In this document: positions 37,295 through 54,949 of the stretch, piece after piece
Numbering within the stretch: position 1 is the first letter of the stretch
How the letters are laid out: each line of letters opens with the position of its first letter
Origin: an uncultured Kiloniellales bacterium
GTDB taxonomy: Bacteria > Actinomycetota > Acidimicrobiia > Spongiisociales > UBA5794
Assembly (NCBI GenBank): GCA_964196275.1
Contig: CAXMSN010000104.1
Span: 1 to 63,904 of the forward strand
DNA length: 63,904 bases
Direction of reading: 5' to 3'
Position numbers and translations under genes: made by a program
The notes under the pieces: generated by a model
The model's database searches: none
What the model saw: the letters and a program-made list of their open reading frames with translations, nothing else
Told to the model about the DNA's origin: nothing

Positions 37295-40200
37295 TCAGTG
37301 ACCCAGCGCTATCTGCTTGAGCCTTCTTACCGCCACCATCCCGGCCGAGATGTCTTCGACGCCGTCTCTCTCGAGCCAGTGGAACAAGCGGTCCCTTCGA
37401 GGCAGAAGACGTGGGAAGCGGGCGTAGTGGGCGTCGAGCGATCCTTCGGTCTCACCGAGCACCATCGCAACGACATGCCTTCGCATCTGTTGGAGATCGT
37501 CTCGAAGCGATTCTGCGGCCAGACGTTCGAATGTCGTCGTGCCTGGCAGGTTCCGGATCTGGCGCTCGAGCCAGTCCACCTTGAACTCGTAGCTGACACG
37601 CGTGTAGATGGCGGCGACCTCCATCACATCACGACCGTGCTGATGTGCGAGTTCGATGATGTCTGGTCCCCTACGGAGCGAGTGCTGGAAGCCGTGGCGC
37701 TTCGCGATGTCCGGAGGCACACCGTTTGCGACCATGTGGGAGGCGGATGCTTCCGCTGGTTCCCTCCAGCCCTCGGGGTCGAGGCTCGGCATCCCCTCTG
37801 ACAGCGCAGCGAAGTCCGCACGCGAGAGGTCGATCTCCTCATCGATGGTTGTGGGAGTCACCGGGCGATTCAGATACCAACGGGTCACGGTCGATACCAA
37901 GCGGTCTATGTCACGGAGCATCTCGTGGTCGATGTCTGGGCCGATGGTTCCGACGAGGCCCTCAATCGCTGCCCACCGCTCACTCGCCCCGGTTATCTCT
38001 CTCGCGACTCGGTACGCACGCATGATTCGATTGGCAGGCGACCCGGTGAGGTGGCGCATCCTCGAGTAGAAGGTCGAGCCTTGCGAGTTCAGGGCCTGAT
38101 TCGCGACGATCGTCGCGATCAGCTCCCTCCGAAGGGGATGGACCCTGATCTCATCGGCGAACCGATCCGACACAGCCGTAGGGAAGTACCCGAGCAGGTC
38201 TGCTTCGAAATGGGGGTCATCGGGCAAGTCAGAATCCAGCAGAAGGTCCGTCAATGACCGTTTGGCATAGGCGAGTAGGACCGCCAGCTCAGGCCTCGTC
38301 ATGCCGCGGCCTTCCCGACCGCGCTGATTCATCTCTTCGGCGGAGGGCAAGAACTCGATCTCCCTGTCGAGGATTCCCTCACGCTCAAGCCGGTCGATGA
38401 GGTCCGCATACAGTTCGACGGTTCGATGTGACTCTGCCGACTCCTGCGAGAGAACCTGGGCTTGAAGGAAGTTGTCGTAGAGAATCGCCTCTACGACATC
38501 GTCGACCACACTCGCGATGATCTCGTCACGCTCAGCCCGATCGATCTTCCCTGATGCCTCGACGAGTCCAAGGAGGATCTTCAAATTCACCTCACGGTCG
38601 GATGCGTGCACGCCGCCCGAGTTGTCGATGAAGTCGGCGAATACGCGCCCGCCCCCCATGTCGAACTCGATTCGACCGCGCTGGGTGACACCGAGGTTTC
38701 CGCCCTCTCCTATCACGCGAGCGCCCACGTCTCGGCCGTTGATCCTGACGGAGTCATTGGAGCGATCCTGCACGAGCTCGGACGTCTCCGCCCTCGACTT
38801 GACGTACGTGCCGATACCGCCGTTCCACAGCAGGTCGGCTGGCGCTTTGAGGATCAGCTTGATCAGCTCGCTCGGTCTCGCTGATTCGACGGGTGTACCA
38901 AGGACCTCACGCATCTCGGGTGTGAGTTCGATGCTCTTGGCTGCTCGGTCGAACACGCCGCCCCCGGCCGAGATGAGATCAGCGTTGTAGTCGAGCCATG
39001 AAGATCTGGGTAACAAACTGATGCGCATTCTCTCGTCCCAGGACGCAGCAGGGTCGGGATCCGGGTCGAAGAAGATGTTCCTGTGGTCGAAGGCTGCAAT
39101 GAGCTTCATGTGTTTGGACCGAAGCAGACCGTTCCCGAACACGTCACCTGACATGTCGCCGATCCCGACGACGGTGATCTCCTCGGCCTCTACATCGACG
39201 CCCAGGTCGAAGAAGTGCCGCCGCACAGACTCCCAGGCGCCCCGAGCGGTGATTCCAAGTGCCTTGTGGTCGTAACCGGCCGACCCTCCCGATGCGAACG
39301 CGTCGTCGAGCCAGAAGCCGTACTCGGCCGCGATCTCGTTCGCCGTATCGGAGAACGACGCGGTTCCTTTGTCGGCAGCGACCACCAGATACGGATCTGG
39401 TGCATCGTGTGCCACAACAGAGTCAGGCGTGACGATCTCGTCCCCGACACGATTGTCCGAAACGTCGAGCAGCCCTCTGATGAACAGCCGGTATGCATCT
39501 TGGACTTCCTCGTACGAAGGCCGAGGGGCGTCGGCTGGTCGGCGTAGAACGAAACCGCCCTTCGCTCCCGTCGGGACGATGACAGCGTTCTTCGTCATCT
39601 GGGCCTTCATCAGCCCGAGAACCTCAGTTCGGTAGTCCTCCCGGCGATCGGACCATCGGATGCCGCCGCGCGCAACGGCGCCGCCTCGAAGGTGGACGCC
39701 TTCGACATCTGTCGCATAGACGTAGATCTCGTGCAGAGGTTTGGGTTCTGGCATCTCAGGAACGTCTGCGGATGCGAACTTGAGCGCCAGAGAGGAACGG
39801 CCTTCGACCCTGACGTTCGTTCGTTCGGTTGCAAGCACGAGTCCGAAGAAGCCTCTCAGGATCCGATCGTCGTCGAGCGACGAGACAGCGTCAAGGCCGT
39901 GCCGGATCTGCTTGGCGATCGCCTTCTCTCGTTCTTCGCTGTGAGCCTCGTCGAACCTCGCCTCGAACAGCCTCACGAGAGCCTCGGCGATCTTGGGGTG
40001 AGCGGTAAGCGTGTCGTTGACGTAGCCGATGGAGAACGACGGAGTCACAAGGCGCCAGTAGTTCCGATAGGCCCTGAGGATCGAGAGTTCGCCGTACGCC
40101 AACTCGGTTCCGAGCAGGAGCCGATGGAGCGCATCCGACTCCGCGCCGCCGGTGAGAACGGCTTCGATCGCAGTCGCGATGCGGTCCCCCACGGTCGCGA

Positions 40201-42094
40201 TATCGACCTGATTTCCCTCGGAAGTGAGAACACCGAAATCGTGGATGTAGGTTTGCTCTTCGCTACGGAGTCGCGTCGGTACCTCCTCGACGACGACCAG
40301 GCCGAGATGCTCGATCAACGGCACGACGGAAGACAGGTTGAGCTTTCCCGAGTTCCGGTAGACCGTGATCCTGGTCAGCCATTCAGATGCGGCGGGCGCC
40401 TTCGCCTCGTCGGCCTCGTTCTGCAGTCCCACAACGAGATCGGCGCCGGTCGATGCCAGCCGGTCAAGGCTGAGGATGTCTCCAACAACGAGCGCCAAGG
40501 CTGTCGAGGCCTTGTAATAGTCAGGGAACCCCGGCGTCCAGCGATCTGCAAGGCGGTTCGCCTCAGAGTCTCCAACCGCCTTGGCGAGTTCGCCGACAAC
40601 CTTGTCTTCCCACGTTCGCGCAAGTGCAAGCACCTCGACTTCGAGTTGTGAGACGTCAACCTCGACGGGCCCGGACCCCTCGGTCCAGACCGAGAAGTGG
40701 ATTCGCGCATCTCCCGACTCTGCGAGCGACAGTCGGTAGTCGACGGTGAGGCCTCCGTACGCATCCTTGAAGAGTTGCTGCAGTTCCTGGCGCAGCACCG
40801 AGTTGAACCGGTCACGCGGAACCGTGACGAGGATGCTGACAGATCTCCGGAGCGCATCGCGACGAACGAACAGTCGGACGCGTTCAGAATCTTCTGCGAC
40901 GATCAGCGCGCTGAGCGTGTCACCGAGATCCTCGATAGTGCCGGCGAACAGATCGTCTTTGGGGAAGCTGTCGAAGAGCTGGACCATCGACTTGTAGTCA
41001 TGAGAACCCTCGATGAGATCCTGATCCTTGAGGATCTGCTCGAGCTTGCGTCGCAGCACGGGAATCTCGCTGGCTGCTGCCATATAGGCCTTTGACGTGA
41101 ACAGCCCAATGAGCCTGTGTTCGGTCACGGTCCTGCCGTCATCGCCGGCTTTCCGGACACCCACGTATTCCATCCGAGCGCCGCGATGGACAGTGGCTTT
41201 CTGGTTGGTCTTCGTGATGACAACCAGGTCTCCGCCTCTGTATCGATCCCGGACGTACGGCGGCAGGTCAGAGAGCAACACGGCCTCGGGCTCGAACCCG
41301 TTGTCGTGGAGAATGCCCAATCCGCTTCCGGTTCTCGCCAGAACTGCCTGGTCACCGTTCTGATCCACGATGTCGTACTCGCGATATCCGAGGAACACGA
41401 AGTTGTCGTCGAGTAGCCACCGCAAGAACTCCACCGACTCCGAGATCTCGTCGAAGTGGAAGTACGTGTCTCCCGACTTCGCAGCCTCGACCATCTTGGG
41501 GACCATCCTTCGCATTGGCTCGAAGTCGCGCACGACCGAGGCAAGGTCGCTCAGTGTGTCGCGGATGTCGCTGGTCAGTTCCGCCTTGGCGTCCGAGTCG
41601 AGCCTGCGGTCGAGTTCGAAATGCTGGACGCTTACGACCCTGCCTGAGGACCGGGCCGAGTCGATACCGATCAGGAAGCCTGTCTCGTCTCTCGTCGTCC
41701 CGACGAGTGGGTGGAGATGCCGTTCGATCCCAACTCCGGACCGGCTGACAGCGAGAGCCATCGAGTCGACGAGGAACGGCCGGTCATCAACGACGACCTG
41801 GACAACCGATCCAGTGGTCTCGTATCCGCACTCGTTAAGCGACGGGTCGAACACGCGGATCGCCATCTCCTCGAGGCCTCGGCTCTGCACGAACAAGAAG
41901 AGGTCTGAGATCTCGGCGTACAACTGGTCGATCGGAATGTCCGGGAGATCGATGTTCGGAATGCGCCTGATGTAGAGGCGGGCAAAGGCCGAGAGCATCG
42001 CCCGAGTTTCATCGGGTACGTCGGCAGGAATCGTTGCGACCAGTTGGTCGACGACGGACGGTTCAGGCTTGACGGGCGAGCCGTTTCCGGTCAT
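37295..42094 (-). CDS. gdhB: Large NAD-specific glutamate dehydrogenase (1599 aa)
   Basis: VARGGIRWSDR, GLMKAQ, VPTGAKGG, DPYLVVAADKGTA, GDMSGDVFGNG, GEGGNLG; TAGCCT-N7-ATG. Confidence 0.95.
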   Translation of the reverse strand: MTGNGSPVKPEPSVVDQLVATIPADVPDETRAMLSAFARLYIRRIPNIDLPDIPIDQLYAEISDLFLFVQSRGLEEMAIRVFDPSLNECGYETTGSVVQVVVDDRPFLVDSMALAVSRSGVGIERHLHPLVGTTRDETGFLIGIDSARSSGRVVSVQHFELDRRLDSDAKAELTSDIRDTLSDLASVVRDFEPMRRMVPKMVEAAKSGDTYFHFDEISESVEFLRWLLDDNFVFLGYREYDIVDQNGDQAVLARTGSGLGILHDNGFEPEAVLLSDLPPYVRDRYRGGDLVVITKTNQKATVHRGARMEYVGVRKAGDDGRTVTEHRLIGLFTSKAYMAAASEIPVLRRKLEQILKDQDLIEGSHDYKSMVQLFDSFPKDDLFAGTIEDLGDTLSALIVAEDSERVRLFVRRDALRRSVSILVTVPRDRFNSVLRQELQQLFKDAYGGLTVDYRLSLAESGDARIHFSVWTEGSGPVEVDVSQLEVEVLALARTWEDKVVGELAKAVGDSEANRLADRWTPGFPDYYKASTALALVVGDILSLDRLASTGADLVVGLQNEADEAKAPAASEWLTRITVYRNSGKLNLSSVVPLIEHLGLVVVEEVPTRLRSEEQTYIHDFGVLTSEGNQVDIATVGDRIATAIEAVLTGGAESDALHRLLLGTELAYGELSILRAYRNYWRLVTPSFSIGYVNDTLTAHPKIAEALVRLFEARFDEAHSEEREKAIAKQIRHGLDAVSSLDDDRILRGFFGLVLATERTNVRVEGRSSLALKFASADVPEMPEPKPLHEIYVYATDVEGVHLRGGAVARGGIRWSDRREDYRTEVLGLMKAQMTKNAVIVPTGAKGGFVLRRPADAPRPSYEEVQDAYRLFIRGLLDVSDNRVGDEIVTPDSVVAHDAPDPYLVVAADKGTASFSDTANEIAAEYGFWLDDAFASGGSAGYDHKALGITARGAWESVRRHFFDLGVDVEAEEITVVGIGDMSGDVFGNGLLRSKHMKLIAAFDHRNIFFDPDPDPAASWDERMRISLLPRSSWLDYNADLISAGGGVFDRAAKSIELTPEMREVLGTPVESARPSELIKLILKAPADLLWNGGIGTYVKSRAETSELVQDRSNDSVRINGRDVGARVIGEGGNLGVTQRGRIEFDMGGGRVFADFIDNSGGVHASDREVNLKILLGLVEASGKIDRAERDEIIASVVDDVVEAILYDNFLQAQVLSQESAESHRTVELYADLIDRLEREGILDREIEFLPSAEEMNQRGREGRGMTRPELAVLLAYAKRSLTDLLLDSDLPDDPHFEADLLGYFPTAVSDRFADEIRVHPLRRELIATIVANQALNSQGSTFYSRMRHLTGSPANRIMRAYRVAREITGASERWAAIEGLVGTIGPDIDHEMLRDIDRLVSTVTRWYLNRPVTPTTIDEEIDLSRADFAALSEGMPSLDPEGWREPAEASASHMVANGVPPDIAKRHGFQHSLRRGPDIIELAHQHGRDVMEVAAIYTRVSYEFKVDWLERQIRNLPGTTTFERLAAESLRDDLQQMRRHVVAMVLGETEGSLDAHYARFPRLLPRRDRLFHWLERDGVEDISAGMVAVRRLKQIALGH

Positions 42095-42194
42095 GCACGC
42101 GAGGCTAGACGGGTCCTGATCAACAACGCGGCGATTTCGGGGATTGTCTTCGCCCACAGATATACGATGATGCGTCCAGAGTCGAAAGGGACCC

Positions 42195-42974
42195 ATGGCC
42201 AACCCACCGCTCCAGAAGCAATTCGGCGCCCTCCCTGAGGTCGGTGCGGGATCAGACGCGGCGCTCCAGGGCGCCCAAACGCCCGCTGGATTTGGAGCAG
42301 ACGATCCGATGACCATCGGCGGGACCTCAGCGAAGACAGCGTTCCTGCTGATCCTCGTCCTCGGTGCTGGCGCCTGGGGGTGGACGCTTGTCGATCCCGT
42401 CACTGGTGGCACGGGGCTTCCCGGCTGGTGGTTCTTCCTGGCGATCGGCGTGTTCGGCCTTGCGATACTGACTGCGTTCAAGCCGCACCTTGCGATCATC
42501 ACCGGACCCCTGTACGCCTTGTCTATGGGCGTCGCCATCGGGACGATCAGCCGTCTCTACGAATCGCAATTCGAAGGGATCGTTCTTCAAGCGATCATGG
42601 CCACGGCCGCCGTGTTCTTCGTAATGCTGGTCCTGTTCGTGACCCGGACGATCAAGGTGACCAATCGACTGCGCGGCGTCATCATCGGAGCAACGCTCGG
42701 GATCATGCTGTTCTATCTCGCCAGCTTCGTGCTATCGCTCTTCAGCACCAGCATCCCGCTTGTTTGGGATAGCGGCCCCGTCGGAATCGGTTTCAGCGTG
42801 CTGATCGTCGGGATCGCTGCATTCAACCTGATGCTCGACTTCGACCTGATCGAACGTGGCGTACAGGCCAGGGCCCCGAAGTCCATGGAGTGGTTCGGTG
42901 CGTTCGCCCTGATGGTCACCATCATCTGGCTCTACATAGAGATCCTCAGACTGATCGGCAAAGTCCGGAACTAG
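42195..42974 (+). CDS. Bax inhibitor-1/YccA family membrane protein
   Basis: MT..GT..KT, GIVLQA, LMLDFD, TIIWLYIEILR. Confidence 0.85.
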   Translation: MANPPLQKQFGALPEVGAGSDAALQGAQTPAGFGADDPMTIGGTSAKTAFLLILVLGAGAWGWTLVDPVTGGTGLPGWWFFLAIGVFGLAILTAFKPHLAIITGPLYALSMGVAIGTISRLYESQFEGIVLQAIMATAAVFFVMLVLFVTRTIKVTNRLRGVIIGATLGIMLFYLASFVLSLFSTSIPLVWDSGPVGIGFSVLIVGIAAFNLMLDFDLIERGVQARAPKSMEWFGAFALMVTIIWLYIEILRLIGKVRN

Positions 42975-44614: not shown

Positions 44615-45853
44615 ATGAACCCCGCAGAGATGACACCTGCCGAGATCGCAGAGGTACAGAGAGCCTGGTACCGCTTCTGGCTCCCGCGGATCACGATCGG
44701 GTCGATTGTGGCCATGGCGGTCGTGTTCGGCGGTCAGTGGGTCTTCACCAGCACCACCGACTTCCTGATGACGATGATCCTCTCATTCTTCATCGCCTTT
44801 GCGATGCTCCCCGCCGTTGACTACCTCTCGGGCCGAGGATGGAAGCGAGGCCTCGCAACGGCAACTGTGATGTTCGTCGGCATGCTCATGGCGATCCTCT
44901 TCGCTTTCGCCATGGCACAGCTCGTCGTCGATCAGATCATCCAGATGATCGGGAAGTCATCGGGCTACGCGCAGCAGCTGATCGACTGGGTCAACTCAAC
45001 CTTCGATCAGAACTATACGATTGACGACGTCGTCGTACAGCTCGGTGGCTACGAAGACATCGCCGTCAAGGCTGGCAAGACGCTGATTTCTGGCATTCTT
45101 GGCTTCACCAGTTCGATCCTTGGTCTCATCTTCAAGGCGCTAACGATCTCCCTGTTCGTGTTCTATATCCTTGCCGACTTCCCGAAGATGCGAGCAGCGT
45201 TGCTTCACAACCTGCGTCCGTCCGCGCAGCTCCATGTCGACACGTTCCTGTCGATCACCGTGCAGAAGGTCGGTGGATACATCTACAGCCGGCTCGTCCT
45301 TGCGGCATTTTCGGCGGCTTACCACTTCGTAGTCTTCAAGATGCTCGGCCTGCCATACGCCTTGGCGATGGCCCTGTGGGTCGGCCTCGTAAGCCAGTTC
45401 GTCCCAAGCGTCGGCACATATCTCGCTGGAGTCGTCCCGTTCTTCATCGCACTGGCCGAAGGGGGGGCATCCACTGCCATCTGGGTCCTTATCGCGGTCA
45501 CGATCTATCAGCAGATCGAGAACTACCTGTTGTCACCGAAGATCACGAAGAACACGATGGACCTGCACCCTGCGATCGCGTTCGGATCAGCGATGATCGG
45601 TGCGGCGCTCCTTGGGGCCATAGGTGCCCTGCTTGCGCTTCCGGTCGCCGCCACTATCACGGCACTCGTCCAGACCTATGCGGATGACTACGAAATCATC
45701 GAGAACGAGCTCATCGAATCGCCGGACGAGTATTCCGCCAGGATGCAGGCGATCAGGGACGCCAAGGATCGCAAGCGGGCAGAGCGCAAGGTGAAGCTCG
45801 GATTCAAGCCGAAGACCGACGACGACGAATCGGACACATCGGACGACGAGTGA
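44615..45853 (+). CDS. AI-2E family transporter
   Basis: FVPSVG, YQQIENYLLSP, DLHPAIA, GALLALP. Confidence 0.88.
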   Translation: MNPAEMTPAEIAEVQRAWYRFWLPRITIGSIVAMAVVFGGQWVFTSTTDFLMTMILSFFIAFAMLPAVDYLSGRGWKRGLATATVMFVGMLMAILFAFAMAQLVVDQIIQMIGKSSGYAQQLIDWVNSTFDQNYTIDDVVVQLGGYEDIAVKAGKTLISGILGFTSSILGLIFKALTISLFVFYILADFPKMRAALLHNLRPSAQLHVDTFLSITVQKVGGYIYSRLVLAAFSAAYHFVVFKMLGLPYALAMALWVGLVSQFVPSVGTYLAGVVPFFIALAEGGASTAIWVLIAVTIYQQIENYLLSPKITKNTMDLHPAIAFGSAMIGAALLGAIGALLALPVAATITALVQTYADDYEIIENELIESPDEYSARMQAIRDAKDRKRAERKVKLGFKPKTDDDESDTSDDE

Positions 45854-46845
45854 GCGATGATGCCGACGCATCGGTAACAGGGGTCGGAGAGACGTTCGAC
45901 GAGTTCCGGCGATCGTTCTCGTACGGCTCTCGGGGAAACCTGAACTTCAAGTTCATGAAGTCGATGTCTGAGGCCGATGCCGCAGCCTTCCTCGCCACCG
46001 TTCTTCAGCAGCTCGGCGACGCGTACGACACCGGAGATGTCTCGCCCATGATCGAGACGGCGATCGAAGCCCAGATCGCTGGGTACGCCCCAAAGCCGGC
46101 CGACATGCCTCCCATGTTCGAGTTCGACAGTGGCCCGTTTGCGCCTGCGAAGACTCAGGTCAGCGAAGCGACGATCGGGCTCCTGACGACGTCAGGGCAT
46201 TTCCTCGAAGACGACGACCCTGAGCCCGAAGGCATGACGCAGGCTGAAGCGGTCGATCGCATCTCTGAGTCGCTCAGGGGGACGCCGACCCTCTCAGAGA
46301 TCCCGCGTACGTCGGATGTTGAATCGATCACTGTGAGGCACGGGGGATACGACATCACCTCTGCCGCGATCGACCCGAACGTCAGTTTCCCGATAGACCG
46401 CATGAACGAACTGGAGCGAGACGGAACGATCGGTGCATTGGCATCGACCTACTTCTCGTTTCCCGGAGCTACCTCCCAGGGTCGGCTCAAGCGCGAACTC
46501 GATGCATGGATCGATCGCATCAAGGCCGAAAATCTCGACTACATGCTGCTGGTTCCCGTCTGACCTGTCTGCCACGTGTCGGTCGGGCACGTAGCACGAG
46601 GCCTCGAAGAGGCCGGGATCGCAACGACGACGATCATGGTCGAGGCTTTCCGCCATCGGGCGGAACAGATGGTGGTCCCGCGTGCGGTGATCACACGCTT
46701 CCCGATGGGAAGGCCTCTCGGGGCGCCGCACGACACCGACCGACATCTCGACGTGATGCGCATGGCGTTCAGCCTCCTCGAGACCGCGACCGAATCAGGA
46801 ACCATCGTCAGCTATCCGCAGGCGTATCGGGTCCAGACCGCCTAG
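45850..46845 (+). CDS. PrdB/GrdB-like selenoprotein B (331 aa, Sec238 encoded by TGA 46561-46563)
   Basis: LLTTSGH, HGGYD, DPNVSFPIDR upstream; in-frame LLVPV-U-PVCHVSVGHVARGLEEAGI...PRAV...FPMG..LGAPH downstream; SECIS-like hairpin. Confidence 0.9.
46570..46596 (+). promoter_or_regulatory. Bacterial SECIS-like hairpin
   Basis: TGC-C-ACGTGTC [GGTCG] GGCACGT-A-GCA: 10 pairs (one G-U), one mismatch; G-leading loop starts 18 nt after the TGA. Confidence 0.75.
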
Positions 46846-46913
46846 TCGGATCGCGACGATTCCGGTGCAATTCGTAACCGTGGACGGCCTGTTCTCCCTC
46901 TGCGTTCGTGATG

Positions 46914-47081: not shown

Positions 47082-47201
47082 CTGAGATTCCTCCCGCCCG
47101 ATTCCTTCATGTCTTGGATGGAGCATCGCGTCCAGTACACGTCCGTGGCCGCCCATAACGGCAGATACGCGCAGCTGTCGGGGCCCGTATTGCCCGGACG
47201 G

Positions 47202-47570
47202 TCATGCGACTGTCGCAGCCGAGGCGGGCCTGAGGGCGATGTGCGTCCATGCGCCTCCGAGCAAGTCCACCGACGCAAACAGGACAAGTTGCCAAGGCCC
47301 AACGGTGAATGCCAGCGCGATCAGCCCTGCGGCGATGCCCCATCGAACCACGACGCTCATGCGATACAGCCGGGTGAACTCCGCCTGCACGGCCGTCCAG
47401 TAGAAAGCGCCGTAGCCGATCAACAGAAGTCCCAGGATCCTGATCCAGACCTCGTCGGTCTCTTCGATTTGGAAGACAGACAGGATGACGTTGGGAATCA
47501 GTAGAAACCCGGCGCCGACTACCAGCACGTAGCCGGTCCACACCGCCATGGAACGAGTAGCCCAAGACAT
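47202..47570 (-). CDS. Hypothetical four-TM membrane protein
   Basis: 122 aa; GAGFLLIPN, EVWIRILG, VDLLGGAWT. Confidence 0.75.
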   Translation of the reverse strand: MSWATRSMAVWTGYVLVVGAGFLLIPNVILSVFQIEETDEVWIRILGLLLIGYGAFYWTAVQAEFTRLYRMSVVVRWGIAAGLIALAFTVGPWQLVLFASVDLLGGAWTHIALRPASAATVA

Positions 47571-47698
47571 TGCCCACCCCCTATGCGAGTCAGCGATTCG
47601 ACGCACCAATGCGCGCCACAGCGGGGGGTGAGTCACAGACGGAACAGCCACCCATGAAGACGGATGTTCATCACCCTATCCAGCGGCTACGCCTAGCC

Positions 47699-50284: not shown

Positions 50285-53200
50285 CTACTCGGTCAGGTGT
50301 GAGGCGAGTTCCTTGTCGAACCGTTCTCTGATCCCTTTGATCCGATCTGACATCGGGACCTCCTCTTCTTCGAACGCCTCCAACGCCGCGTTCTGGGAGA
50401 GGTAGTCGATGTTGGTCACACCGGACTTCGACTGGAGCATCCTCCACGACTTCCTCCGCTCTACGCAGTACAGCACGAGCTGGCGTGACAGCGACATCGC
50501 CCTGACGTTGCCCTTCGCATCCTCCACCTCGATGTACACACCGAAGTCTGGGACGTAGGAACGATGTGTCGGATCAAGCACGTTCCTCGCAACCACATCT
50601 GCCTGCTTCACGAGCAGCAGTATGTCGTCGAGGAAGATGAGGCCGTCGGTGGTCTTCGTTGGCTTGAGATGGCGCCGGAACCTCGCCTCGGTCGACGCGA
50701 AGTGCGCAACCGTGTACGCAAATGTCCTGTCCGACTGCTTGGACGTAATCTGTGTCCAGTCGCGGTCACGGTTGGCGTTGCCCGACACGTCGAGCGCCTC
50801 CTGGTAAGTCTCCCCAAGCTGAGGGTTGTGGACGAACTGCGGCATTGCCCGCGAGTCCCGCACGAGCCCGGCCTGCACCGTTGCGACATCGTCGGCCACG
50901 CCGTGCTCAGGCTGGCAGGTCGTGAACGACTGAATGAACGAAGTGCCCCGGTAGTCGAGTGCGTCAAGGATCGCCTTGTAGAACTGAGCCGTGTTGGCCA
51001 TCGACACCTGCGCCACGTAGGCGGAGCCGTGACCGGAGATGAACGACTCGGCGACACCCTTCTTCTCGGTCATCTTTCCCTCAGAGGCGACGCCGAACTG
51101 GTTCATGTCGCCGCCACCAGGCATCGGTGTCGAGTCTGAGTTCTGACCGCCTGTATTCGAGTACACCTGCGTATCAAGCATCAGCAGTTTGACATTCGGC
51201 CGGTTCTGCAGGACGACTTTCGATACGTTCTGGTAGCCGATATCTCCCATACCGCCATCACCACCGATGGCCCAAGCCTTCGGTAACTCCCGGATCTCAC
51301 GCGGCGTCATGGCGTTGTCTGTCATGTGCGTCATCTCGAAGAACTCGGCTTCTGAGATTCCAACGCCGAGCATCAGGTAGTCGGCCATCCGCTCCGGGAT
51401 GACCGATCGCTTGGCGTGGTCCATGATGAAGCTCTCACCGAGGAGCCACGTGATCGTTGCACCGTCTTGGAACAACGAGTTCATCCACGGATAGGGATGG
51501 GGGTTGTTCGGTGGCGTGGAGCCGTAGACCGTGTTACACCCGGTGTGGGCACCCATCGCCATGACGGACATCCCCTTCGGGACGGTCCCGTCGAGCGCCT
51601 GAAGGTCTCTGTGGTTGAAGGCGTCCTGGCGCATGGTGACGGTCAGGGCCTCGATGATCTGCTCGTCGCTGATCTCGCCATGGCTTGCGATGCGAACCGC
51701 TGTGTCCTCGATCGTTTCTCCACCGAGTCCGAGGATTGAATGTGCGACGAGCATCCGGAGCCGTTCGTACGACGGCATGTCAAGAGCCTTGATCTCACCA
51801 AGCATCTTCATGCCGTGGTCCTGGAGTTCGAGCGCTTTGTTGTCGAGACGGTCTGCCTTTGCGTGGTACATCGGACGCATGTAGGCCTCTGTCAGCGATG
51901 CAACTGCATGCAGAACTGACTTCTCACCACACCCTGCGCATGCGCCATCGCCGCTGACGAGAGCCTCGTAATTGGACCGCACCATCAGATGGTTCTTCAG
52001 GTGAGCAGCAGCGGATTCCATCGGATCGTCCGGGTCGAATCGGCCGAGGTACTTCTCGGGAGTATCAGGGAGCAGGTCGATGAAGTTCGTACCTGAAACG
52101 TGGTCAGCGTTGAGCTGAGGCGTTTCCTGAGCCATCTCAAGTGCTTCCCAAGGACATTCGAGAACGCACTCGGCACAGCCCTTGCAGAGGTCCGAGACCA
52201 TGATCGCAAAGAGGCCGCCCTCGCCGGGGCTACTCCTCTCAAGAGAGCGGAACAGGTGGGAGGTCTTCGTATATGCGAACGGCACGCGATCGAACAGTTG
52301 CATGAACTCGTCCTTGGCCGTGTCGCTCACACCATCGATCGCGTCGACTTCGGGCTTGAGGACATCGACGAACGGAACCGCTGCCTTCTCTTTGTCCTTG
52401 TCCTTGACGATATCGAGAAGCTTCTTGCGCACAGATGTCTCGAGATCGGGAAGGACGTCGACCATCTTCGCCCGCTCGGCCGGGTCAAGGATGTAGCCGC
52501 GTGCAGCGGTACCGAACACGACGTTGAAGTCCTGCGCGACGTTGGGAAGCGCGGTGTCGGGGCAGGCCGTGATGCAGTCCATGCACCCAGTGCAGTTCTC
52601 TGCGATCCATATCGGTGTCTCTCGCCGCGCAACGTATTTGCTCGCCGTCCGGCCAGATCCCGCTGCCATCATCGAAACCGACGAAAGCGGAGTCGATGGC
52701 TGGTCGTAGCCGAGTCCTGCCTTGAATTCCTTGTTGAACGTGGACACAAGAGTGAGAGGGATGCGAACCTCCTGAACCGCCGGGGCCACCGCAGCAGGGA
52801 TCTCGACGCTGCACGAGTCACATGGCGCAAGGGACGGGAGGCGCATGCTCGAACGGTCGGCTTCGCCAGGATCGCCGTACGGGATCTCCTGGATCTGCTC
52901 GTAGCCAGCGGTCATCACCGTCATGTTCGACTCGACGACGGCATCACCGAAGCGGCCGAACTTCTTGACGTACTGTGCGTGCACGATCTCGCGGTAGCGG
53001 TCGTCTGATACGTCGTACTCCTCGAGGAAACCTGACACCCTGAAGAACGCTCCGAGGAACGCATTGCCCTGCATCCTGAGCTGGAGTTCTGGCCTGTCTG
53101 TCGCTTCCCTAGCGATCCTGAAGCCGGGGAGCGTTACGACCCTTACCTTCTTGTCGATGATCTCTTGCCGGTACTGCGGCGGGATCCTCTGCCACACCGT

Positions 53201-54949
53201 GTCGGGGTCCTCCTCGGACTCCCACACAAAGGTTCCTCCTTGGTTCATCCCTTCGAGGGGGTTCGCATGGGTGAAGATCTTCGGATCTGAGCACAACACC
53301 ACATCCACATGGTGGAGGTCGCAGTTCGGGTGGATCCGCTCCGGGGCGGCAACCAGGAAGTAGGAGGTCGGTGCGCCCTTCTTCGCCGACCCGTACTTGG
53401 GGTTGGCAGAGACGTGGATGATCTCCTTCGGCCGTCCGTACTCGTCGACCTCGTCTTGGTGCTCGAGCAGATCGTCTCCGACCGCACCGATCACCTCGGA
53501 CAGGTTCTTACCCGTCGTGATCATCCCCCAGCCGCCGATCGAGTGGAACCTTACGGCTATGGCACCTTCGGGTAGGAGGGAGGGTGTCCTGTCTGCGACC
53601 ACGGCATACGGATGATCGATGCCGAGGGTGAAGTAGGTCTCTCCGTCTGCAACGGTGCTGCCGTCCTGGCGGGCCCGCTGACCGGTTGCGTACTCGTAGG
53701 CGCCGATGATGGCCTCTGGCCTGAAGTCCCTGCTCCCAAGCCCGTAGGAGCCAGACAGGATGAGCGGGGTGTCGGCATCCGTCAGACCCTGGATGTCGGA
53801 TTCGAAGCCTATGAATCCCACCTCAAGTGCCTTGTTCAGCGTCGCTCTGATCTCACGGGTCAGCGGGTTATCTCCCGACATCGACTCGTCGGTCCGCTCA
53901 AGAACGATCACCCTCTTCTTGCCAGCAAGGGCGGCTACGACGTCAGCCTCAGGGAACGGCCTGATGACGTTGATATGAAGCGAGCCAACACTCGCGCCGT
54001 CTTCAGCACGCATGTAATCGACGGCGGCCTCGATGTTCTCCGCCGCAGAGCCGAGCGAAACGAAGACCGTCTCGGCGTCGTCGGTCTTGTACTTCGATAC
54101 GAACCCGTAGTTACGTCCGGTGAGTTCCTCGAAGTCACGGTACGCCGCATCGAGCATCGGGAGGATCTCCTCGGAGAAGTGGTTCCTCCTGGCCAGAATG
54201 CCATTCATGTAGTGCTCCTGGTTCTGAACAGGCCCAAGAAGCATTGGGTTCTTCAGATCCATCATCACTGGCACCCGCCGACGCGTGGGACCGAACAGGA
54301 CCTGTTGGGCCTCAGTCGGTGTGTCGATGATGTCGTCGTGCGAGCCGAGGTACTCACGTAGGAGTTCAGCCTCGTGCTTGTAGAACGTGCGCTCGAGGTG
54401 GGAAGTCAGAAAGCCGTCTTGGATGTTCATCCCAGGGTTCAGCGAAAGCTCGGTCACCCTGCGAAGGATCAAAGCCTGATCCGCAGCCTGCTGCGCATCC
54501 TTGGCGAAGAGCATGATCCAGCCAGTGTCAAGCGCTGAGTACACATCGTCGTGGCCACAGTGAACGTTGAGCGCATGCTTGGTAAGCGCACGGGCGGCGA
54601 CCTCGAGAACCATGGTCGAGAGCTTCCCCGGTGCGTGGTAATACTGCTCGAGCCCGTAGACGATTCCTTGGCCAGAGGTGAAGTTGACGGTCCTGTGACC
54701 TGTCATCGAAGCGGCGATCGCCCCGCCTTGTGCTGCGTGCTCACCCTCAGCTTCGATCGCGATCTTCGAGTTGCCGAAAACGTCGAGAACACCCTCAGCG
54801 AAAGAGAGTTGGTAGTTCTCGCCCATCTCGGTGGACGGTGTGATCGGGTAGAAGACACCGGCCTGAGTGATCCGGGCCTCTGTGTGATAGGCGACGAGTT
54901 GGTTCCCGTTGGTTGTGACCCTGATACCGGGATATTTGGGTGCACCCAT
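50285..54949 (-). CDS. por: Single-chain pyruvate:ferredoxin/flavodoxin oxidoreductase, long form (1554 aa)
   Basis: YPITPS, GLGSRDF, CTGCMDCITACP, CKGCAECVLECP, GACAGCGE, GGDGG..DIG, LDTQVYSNTGGQ. Confidence 0.9.
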   Translation of the reverse strand: MGAPKYPGIRVTTNGNQLVAYHTEARITQAGVFYPITPSTEMGENYQLSFAEGVLDVFGNSKIAIEAEGEHAAQGGAIAASMTGHRTVNFTSGQGIVYGLEQYYHAPGKLSTMVLEVAARALTKHALNVHCGHDDVYSALDTGWIMLFAKDAQQAADQALILRRVTELSLNPGMNIQDGFLTSHLERTFYKHEAELLREYLGSHDDIIDTPTEAQQVLFGPTRRRVPVMMDLKNPMLLGPVQNQEHYMNGILARRNHFSEEILPMLDAAYRDFEELTGRNYGFVSKYKTDDAETVFVSLGSAAENIEAAVDYMRAEDGASVGSLHINVIRPFPEADVVAALAGKKRVIVLERTDESMSGDNPLTREIRATLNKALEVGFIGFESDIQGLTDADTPLILSGSYGLGSRDFRPEAIIGAYEYATGQRARQDGSTVADGETYFTLGIDHPYAVVADRTPSLLPEGAIAVRFHSIGGWGMITTGKNLSEVIGAVGDDLLEHQDEVDEYGRPKEIIHVSANPKYGSAKKGAPTSYFLVAAPERIHPNCDLHHVDVVLCSDPKIFTHANPLEGMNQGGTFVWESEEDPDTVWQRIPPQYRQEIIDKKVRVVTLPGFRIAREATDRPELQLRMQGNAFLGAFFRVSGFLEEYDVSDDRYREIVHAQYVKKFGRFGDAVVESNMTVMTAGYEQIQEIPYGDPGEADRSSMRLPSLAPCDSCSVEIPAAVAPAVQEVRIPLTLVSTFNKEFKAGLGYDQPSTPLSSVSMMAAGSGRTASKYVARRETPIWIAENCTGCMDCITACPDTALPNVAQDFNVVFGTAARGYILDPAERAKMVDVLPDLETSVRKKLLDIVKDKDKEKAAVPFVDVLKPEVDAIDGVSDTAKDEFMQLFDRVPFAYTKTSHLFRSLERSSPGEGGLFAIMVSDLCKGCAECVLECPWEALEMAQETPQLNADHVSGTNFIDLLPDTPEKYLGRFDPDDPMESAAAHLKNHLMVRSNYEALVSGDGACAGCGEKSVLHAVASLTEAYMRPMYHAKADRLDNKALELQDHGMKMLGEIKALDMPSYERLRMLVAHSILGLGGETIEDTAVRIASHGEISDEQIIEALTVTMRQDAFNHRDLQALDGTVPKGMSVMAMGAHTGCNTVYGSTPPNNPHPYPWMNSLFQDGATITWLLGESFIMDHAKRSVIPERMADYLMLGVGISEAEFFEMTHMTDNAMTPREIRELPKAWAIGGDGGMGDIGYQNVSKVVLQNRPNVKLLMLDTQVYSNTGGQNSDSTPMPGGGDMNQFGVASEGKMTEKKGVAESFISGHGSAYVAQVSMANTAQFYKAILDALDYRGTSFIQSFTTCQPEHGVADDVATVQAGLVRDSRAMPQFVHNPQLGETYQEALDVSGNANRDRDWTQITSKQSDRTFAYTVAHFASTEARFRRHLKPTKTTDGLIFLDDILLLVKQADVVARNVLDPTHRSYVPDFGVYIEVEDAKGNVRAMSLSRQLVLYCVERRKSWRMLQSKSGVTNIDYLSQNAALEAFEEEEVPMSDRIKGIRERFDKELASHLTE

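Follow-up and report, generated by a model that had tools for sequence, protein, structure and literature searches.

Within a stretch of 63,904 nucleotides from an uncultured bacterium of the class Acidimicrobiia (assembly GCA_964196275.1, contig CAXMSN010000104.1; referred to below, at its full length, as the window), positions 45850-46845 of the forward strand very probably form a single gene. Its 331-residue product, a selenoprotein, falls in the GrdB/PrdB superfamily (PF07355) and in the marine 'PrdB-like' UxxC family, and no PrdA, GrdE or GrdA partner for it was found in the genome. An in-frame UGA at codon 238 is predicted to be read as selenocysteine (Sec), and the coding sequence just downstream of it folds into a hairpin of the selenocysteine insertion sequence (SECIS) type.

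A single reading frame across the UGA

The gene starts with GTG at 45850. From this codon, an open reading frame (ORF) of 237 codons, ending in ...D-Y-M-L-L-V-P-V, runs into a TGA at 46561-46563, past which the same frame continues with CCT GTC TGC CAC (P-V-C-H-V-S-V-G-H...) for 93 codons until it reaches TAG at 46843-46845. A listing of the ORFs of the locus under translation table 11 gives two separate pieces, 45850..46563 (237 aa) and 46576..46845 (89 aa). Translation through the TGA yields 331 residues, among them U238-P-V-C241-H242, and the protein sequence around Sec238 is ...LLVPV-U-PVCHVSVGHVAR. An earlier note on this DNA had proposed that the two ORFs are a single gene with an in-frame UGA, with U-x-x-C-H at residues 238-242 of a 331-residue product; the motif is indeed present in the sequence, and it is no chance arrangement, as profile matches extend across the TGA and, as described below, the TGA column is conserved and independent contigs carry it too.

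The protein is made of two parts. Residues 1 to ~87-90 (45850-46110) form a family-specific N-terminal region which has no counterpart in the PrdB and GrdB models: matches to Pfam and NCBIfam begin only past it, at residue 88 or 142. It carries the motif F-x-x-F-[RK]-x-S-F-x-Y-G-x-R-x-x-[LIV]-x-F-K-[FY], followed by helices, and in an alignment of 13 sequences its columns F19, S22, F23, Y25, G26, R28, F33, K34 and K37 are invariant. Residues 88-331 (46111-46842) form the alpha/beta core of the GrdB/PrdB superfamily, as defined by PF07355, TIGR04483 and an AlphaFold2 model. The core includes both the UGA codon (46561-46563), assigned as Sec on the basis of a TGA column conserved in homologs and replaced by Cys in four of them (L106, P0029, P0071 and P0093), and the TGC codon of Cys241 (46570-46572), which completes the U-P-V-C motif. 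Cys241 is invariant in the 13-sequence alignment and is C in all 84 distinct stretches compared; by analogy, it may be the resolving partner of Sec238.

Conservation of the UGA and selection downstream of it

Homologous loci were compared in two sets. The first was drawn from 61 genomes of the same order, 29 of which have a homolog; the best 20 loci were examined, and all 20 have TGA at the same column (...LVP[VLI]-U-P-[VIM]-C-[HYF]...). The second consisted of 80 loci from named genomes, mostly metagenome-assembled genomes (MAGs) of Acidimicrobiia together with Gemmatimonadota, Chloroflexota, SAR324 and a few Proteobacteria. TGA stands at this column in 79 of them, the exception being L106, a Caldilineaceae MAG, which has TGC. 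The TGA is retained in about 100 independent loci from several phyla, down to 43% identity.

Protein databases give a complementary picture. Among the 120 best homologs, 117 are N-terminal fragments of ~230-240 aa. The remaining three (P0029, P0071 and P0093) are full-length and come from uninterrupted ORFs reading ...LVPV-C-PVCHVS... at the site. Three independent Joint Genome Institute (JGI) metagenome contigs, whose proteins are 78-91% identical, carry the same TGA, which excludes an assembly artefact, and JGI gene calls on these contigs consist of a 237-aa gene and a gene of 89-101 aa. The outcomes that the earlier note had named as refuting its reading all turned out in favour of that reading: selA, selB, selC and selD are present, homologs have only TGA or Cys at this column, independent assembled contigs show TGA and not TGC or TGT, and standard pipelines do call two fragments, as was anticipated, both in the database homologs and in the JGI split into 237 aa and 89 aa.

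The segment past the TGA is under the same kind of constraint as the segment before it. Among close relatives, the ratio of nonsynonymous to synonymous substitution rates (dN/dS) lies at 0.10-0.19 over the 93 codons past the TGA and at 0.09-0.15 over the 237 codons before it, and 22 of the 59 invariant columns of the 13-sequence alignment fall in the 93 downstream residues.

At least three paralogous PrdB/GrdB-like subfamilies, with the sites UPMCH, UPLCT and UPDCC, also occur, each with one TGA at the same column. These paralogs (L030-L038; relatives G031, G011, G040, G060, G025, G018, G051 and G013) are 280-400 aa long and 29-35% identical to the protein described here. One ortholog, L026 (G012:C4:428824-429775), has a 1-nt insertion ~40 nt past the TGA which splits the match over two frames; either the locus is a pseudogene or the insertion arose in assembly.

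A SECIS-type hairpin within the coding sequence

A hairpin at 46570-46596 (+ strand), identified by minimum free energy folding, covariation and frozen synonymous sites, lies within the coding sequence immediately downstream of the UGA. Its upper stem of 7 bp pairs 46574-46580 with 46586-46592 around the apical loop GGUCG (46581-46585), with a spacer of 10 nt from the UGA. Beneath a C/A mismatch there is a weaker lower stem of 3 bp (46570-46572 with 46594-46596), which is less conserved than the upper stem.

Covariation was assessed in 24 sequences, including paralogs in which the encoded amino acids are altered (HVSVGH to HRSVGL, HQSVGL, HQTVSL or TRMVGT). In the upper stem, 98.2% of cells are paired and 5 of the 7 pairs show compensatory double changes. 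None of 500 shuffles reached the observed covariation, and in a control in which the 3' arm was slid, pairing fell to 16-45%. Loop nucleotides G22 and U23 are invariant. Third-position synonymous sites are frozen within the stem: in the 84 distinct stretches, G occupies position 18 in 81 of 82 cases and nucleotide 27 is only ever G or A, either of which pairs with U19, while fourfold sites just outside the stem vary freely (H = 1.5-1.95 bits). We therefore predict, from sequence, that the hairpin is a SECIS-type element and that it is bound by SelB.

The position of the hairpin and its G-U loop fit established bacterial SECIS elements. As in bacterial elements such as that of E. coli fdhF, the hairpin is part of the coding sequence, begins ~10 nt past the UGA and keeps G-U unchanged in its apical loop; its sequence, on the other hand, is specific to this family and has no match in Rfam. 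Two loop variants were seen, nucleotides 21 and 24 being G and C in ~60 of the 84 stretches and C and G in ~24 (UCG-GUC versus UCC-GUG). These correspond to a GGUCG pentaloop or to an extra C-G pair closing a GUG triloop, and G22-U23 is invariant in both. In the UPDCC paralogs, the hairpin is located ~7 nt further downstream (CGUGCC...GGCACG).

Selenocysteine machinery in the genome and the clade

The host assembly (2.09 Mb in 139 contigs, 83% complete) encodes the four components of Sec decoding. selA (C112:931-2250, 394 bits) and selB directly downstream of it (C112:2279-4021, 317 bits) score over their curated cut-offs, as does selD (C67:61546-62472, L002:1351-2520; 403 bits), so that three of the four genes pass such a cut-off; the fourth, tRNA-Sec with anticodon tca, was found by ARAGORN at C67 c[37391,37485]. 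SelD is itself a selenoprotein with one internal TGA at the canonical SHGAG-U-ACK site, and the tRNA-Sec gene lies ~24 kb away from it on C67, with selA-selB on C112.

The earlier note had supposed that the organism possesses the Sec machinery, which is borne out by the presence of selA, selB, selC and selD. It had also described Sec decoding as patchy in actinobacteria, which does not apply to this clade: selA is over cut-off in 56 of the 61 relatives, and Sec decoding is near universal in this actinobacterial order. All 29 carriers of the selenoprotein gene have selA, and the 5 relatives without selA also lack the gene (hypergeometric p ~0.03), an association that is a weak test given that selA is nearly universal.

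Family assignment and partner genes

PrdB of Clostridia is a subunit of D-proline reductase (Kabisch et al. 1999, as cited in PMC1088965). By its profile matches, the protein described here is a relative of PrdB and GrdB at the superfamily level only. Residues 88-234 score 47.5 bits against PF07355 (GRDB), above the gathering cut-off of 22. TIGR04483 (PrdB) matches residues 142-328 over model positions 50-236 of 238 (E 1.5e-29), in an alignment that runs across the TGA; its score of 103.1 bits is well below the equivalog cut-off of 300. Grd models give 40.8-61.5 bits versus cut-offs of 602-800, and the subfamily model TIGR01918 gives 44.8 bits versus 65.45. The label PrdB/GrdB-like, which the earlier note had used, is thus sound for the superfamily and does not extend further, since the equivalog cut-offs are missed and the defining partners were not found.

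Compared with clostridial PrdB (TIGR04483), the protein is homologous over its last ~187 residues and shares Sec in UxxC, but it has ~140 extra N-terminal residues, no PrdA (PF09338), no prd operon and an aerobic host. Compared with GrdB, GrdF and GrdH (PF07355, TIGR01917/TIGR01918), residues 88-234 align to GRDB 207-344 and the alignment ends just before the Sec, but the first ~200 residues of GrdB are missing, the length is 331 aa versus ~435, and GrdA and GrdE were not found. The GrdB motif has been reported as UxxCxxC (PMC13188914), versus UxxC in this protein.

Searches of the 83%-complete host genome gave no match to PF09338, the pyruvoyl proprotein of GrdE and PrdA, and none to PF04723 (GrdA), the latter search being made without a positive control. 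Among the 61 relatives, PF09338 has strong matches (326-420 bits) in five, which shows that the model does detect such genes, and these never adjoin orthologs of the selenoprotein gene. Of the 16 relatives in which a close ortholog occurs, many of them 93-99% complete, 14 lack PF09338. No PF09338-type gene lies within 6 kb of the gene in any of 81 loci. The five PF09338 genes (G006:C1:471595-473876, G054:C98:60271-62487 and G036:C154:49801-52169, and those on G045:C14 and G055:C96) present a different arrangement. In at least three of the five relatives, the gene adjoins a distant GrdB-type homolog, in one case with a TGA, which suggests that some genomes of this order have genuine Grd/Prd-like reductase clusters.

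The genome also encodes a haem-copper oxidase subunit I (COX1, 439 bits), and we therefore regard the host as a respiring organism and not a Stickland fermenter. As the gene has its own N-terminal domain, stands alone and is found in an aerobic host, its substrate is probably something other than D-proline or glycine.

Structural model and proposed mechanism

An AlphaFold2 model computed from the 13-sequence alignment (predicted local distance difference test, pLDDT, 83.8; predicted template modelling score, pTM, 0.85) shows an alpha/beta core preceded by a helical N-terminal region. In the model, Sec238 lies between strand 231-235 and helix 239-254, where a redox-active UxxC or CxxC motif is usually placed. 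A sequence search of the PDB returned only noise (Bcl-xL, E > 0.2).

We propose the following mechanism. SelB-GTP with Sec-tRNA(Sec) would bind the hairpin on the translating mRNA, as in the established bacterial Sec pathway, and would deliver Sec at UGA 238 in competition with release factor 2 (RF2). In the product, both Sec238 and Cys241 would lie at the N-terminal end of helix 239-254. If the chemistry follows that of PrdB and GrdB, the Sec238 selenolate would serve as catalytic nucleophile in a reductive reaction, resolution by Cys241 would turn the intermediate into a selenenyl-sulfide, and re-reduction would fall to thioredoxin or another thiol system. Unlike PrdB and GrdB, the enzyme would function without a pyruvoyl subunit (PrdA/GrdE) or GrdA.

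Alternative explanations

Could the TGA be a true stop, the locus being a pseudogene, a product of assembly or sequencing error, or two genes of 237 aa and 89 aa, the second starting at GTG 46576? Gene callers using table 11 do give exactly these two pieces, and the G012 ortholog (L026) is frameshifted just past the TGA. We nevertheless give this explanation almost no credence: the TGA is kept in about 100 independent loci from several phyla, at identities down to 43%, the codons past it evolve at a dN/dS of only 0.10-0.19, homologs with Cys are each encoded by one unbroken ORF, the invariant U-P-V-C motif would be lost from a protein starting at 46576, and the covarying hairpin would be left unexplained. 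It is also highly improbable that the UGA is decoded not, or not only, as Sec, either through insertion of Cys or Trp by a near-cognate or mischarged tRNA or through reassignment of UGA. A few homologs tolerate Cys at the site, and insertion of Cys via tRNA-Sec under selenium limitation is known in some systems. But UGA serves as an ordinary stop here, for example at the end of the upstream transporter gene (45851-45853) and as the final stop of many homologs, the genome has all the Sec machinery and the gene a SECIS-type hairpin, and the canonical Sec site of this genome's SelD is likewise encoded by TGA.

A further explanation accepts the selenoprotein but takes it for a genuine PrdB of a Stickland-type D-proline reductase, or for the B subunit of a glycine, sarcosine or betaine reductase, with the PrdA or GrdE gene lying elsewhere or in the 17% of the genome that the assembly lacks. 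TIGR04483 is indeed the best NCBIfam match, the UxxC motif is in common, relatives go under the name 'D-proline reductase PrdB' at JGI and in the selenoproteome papers, and the genome is 83% complete. This is nonetheless very unlikely. The PrdB match reaches 103 bits versus a cut-off of 300 and the protein falls under every Grd cut-off, TIGR01918 (44.8 versus 65.45) included; 331 residues with an unrelated N-terminal domain fit neither the 238 of the PrdB model nor the 431-435 of GrdB-type models; PF09338 and PF04723 were not found in the genome, and the former is missing from 14 of 16 relatives with close orthologs; where PF09338 does occur, it adjoins a different GrdB-type paralog and never lies within 6 kb in the 81 loci; and the organism has a haem-copper oxidase.

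Several observations weigh against reading the gene as a stand-alone selenoprotein of this family. No SECIS family was found in an Rfam scan of 46300-46900 (E <= 10), which returned one chance hit on the opposite strand, and the fold of the single sequence is unexceptional (z = -1.45); because this fold is unconvincing alone, the SECIS assignment rests on covariation. The selenium-containing full-length product is predicted from the gene sequence, and the catalytic mechanism is drawn by analogy only. Foldseek comparison of the AlphaFold2 model with the PDB gave no match at E <= 0.001, the best TM-score being ~0.3, and gene context gives no clue to the substrate. Finally, genome completeness of 83% leaves the absence of the partners unproven, although the pattern in near-complete relatives supports it.

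Relation to the published family

The subfamily and its Sec are already catalogued, and the gene is a further member of a known family. In the Sargasso Sea data, 'Proline reductase PrdB' (UxxC, pfam07355) ranked third in abundance among selenoprotein families, 42 of its forms having Sec and 1 having Cys (PMC1088965; Zhang, Fomenko & Gladyshev 2005); in the Global Ocean Sampling (GOS) data it was among the top families, Sec being present in 235 forms and Cys in 110 (PMC2398784; Zhang & Gladyshev 2008). JCVI_READ_1095913010181, listed as '#Proline reductase' in the GOS supplement (PMC2398784), shares 45% identity with our protein across residues 14-308 (E 5e-86), a value that falls among those of the orthologs here (43-61%), and it carries the same N-terminal domain and the site UPVCHVSVGHV. 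Our protein shares with the marine family the N-terminal SF-x-YGSRSDLNFKF, the site U-P-V-C-H-V-S-V-G-H and the C-terminal PMGRPLGAP, and differs from it in nothing essential, the member described here coming from an Acidimicrobiia MAG.

Reviews place the family under D-proline reductase (PMC9312934, PMC13188914), and our literature search found no paper that treats the partner-less form separately. The published name, which implies a D-proline reductase, is unsupported by partner genes, operon context and host physiology. We tentatively raise the possibility, which we hold with some reserve, that, in aerobic bacteria of the sea and of sediments (Acidimicrobiia, Gemmatimonadota, Chloroflexota and SAR324), 'PrdB-like' selenoproteins are not subunits of proline reductase. 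They would instead be a distinct stand-alone selenoenzyme in which the conserved N-terminal domain replaces the pyruvoyl subunit, and the reductive reaction that they catalyse would be one so far undescribed, its substrate being perhaps an osmolyte abundant in the sea or some other small molecule. If so, one of the most abundant selenoprotein families of the ocean is functionally mis-named.

While existing knowledge of Sec decoding is unchanged by this gene, there are practical consequences for annotation. This gene and about 97% of its best relatives (117/120) are stored as ~234-aa fragments lacking the active site, accompanied by an orphan ORF of ~89 aa, and no NCBIfam model passes its cut-off for the family, so that automatic recovery of the Sec is unlikely. 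A stand-alone gene in a respiring Acidimicrobiia genome with full Sec machinery is a reasonable start for a substrate hunt.

Genomic neighbourhood

Immediately upstream of the selenoprotein gene lies a gene for an AI-2E family transporter (44615-45853, + strand), whose TGA stop (45851-45853) overlaps the selenoprotein start by 4 nt (GTGA). Coupling to this transporter was considered as a feature of the family and rejected: the adjacency is confined to a genus-level clade, and other close relatives have the order BaxI, hydrolase, selenoprotein gene and UvrD, with no transporter. Over the 81 loci there is no conserved neighbour. The best cluster, an S-adenosylmethionine (SAM) methyltransferase, occurs at 9 loci, followed by a short-chain dehydrogenase/reductase (SDR) at 8, a pyridine-nucleotide disulfide oxidoreductase at 7 and a DUF427-thioredoxin fusion at 5; because these clusters are too sporadic, we name no partner.

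Between the selenoprotein gene and uvrD/pcrA, an ORF of 156 aa on the reverse strand (47107-47577) has no Pfam or NCBIfam match and no homolog in 99 related loci, and may not be a gene. The large flanking genes, both on the reverse strand, encode a 1747-aa bacterial NAD-glutamate dehydrogenase (37295-42538; PF05088, 751 bits) and a fused protein of 1554 aa that resembles pyruvate/2-oxoacid:ferredoxin oxidoreductase (50285-54949).

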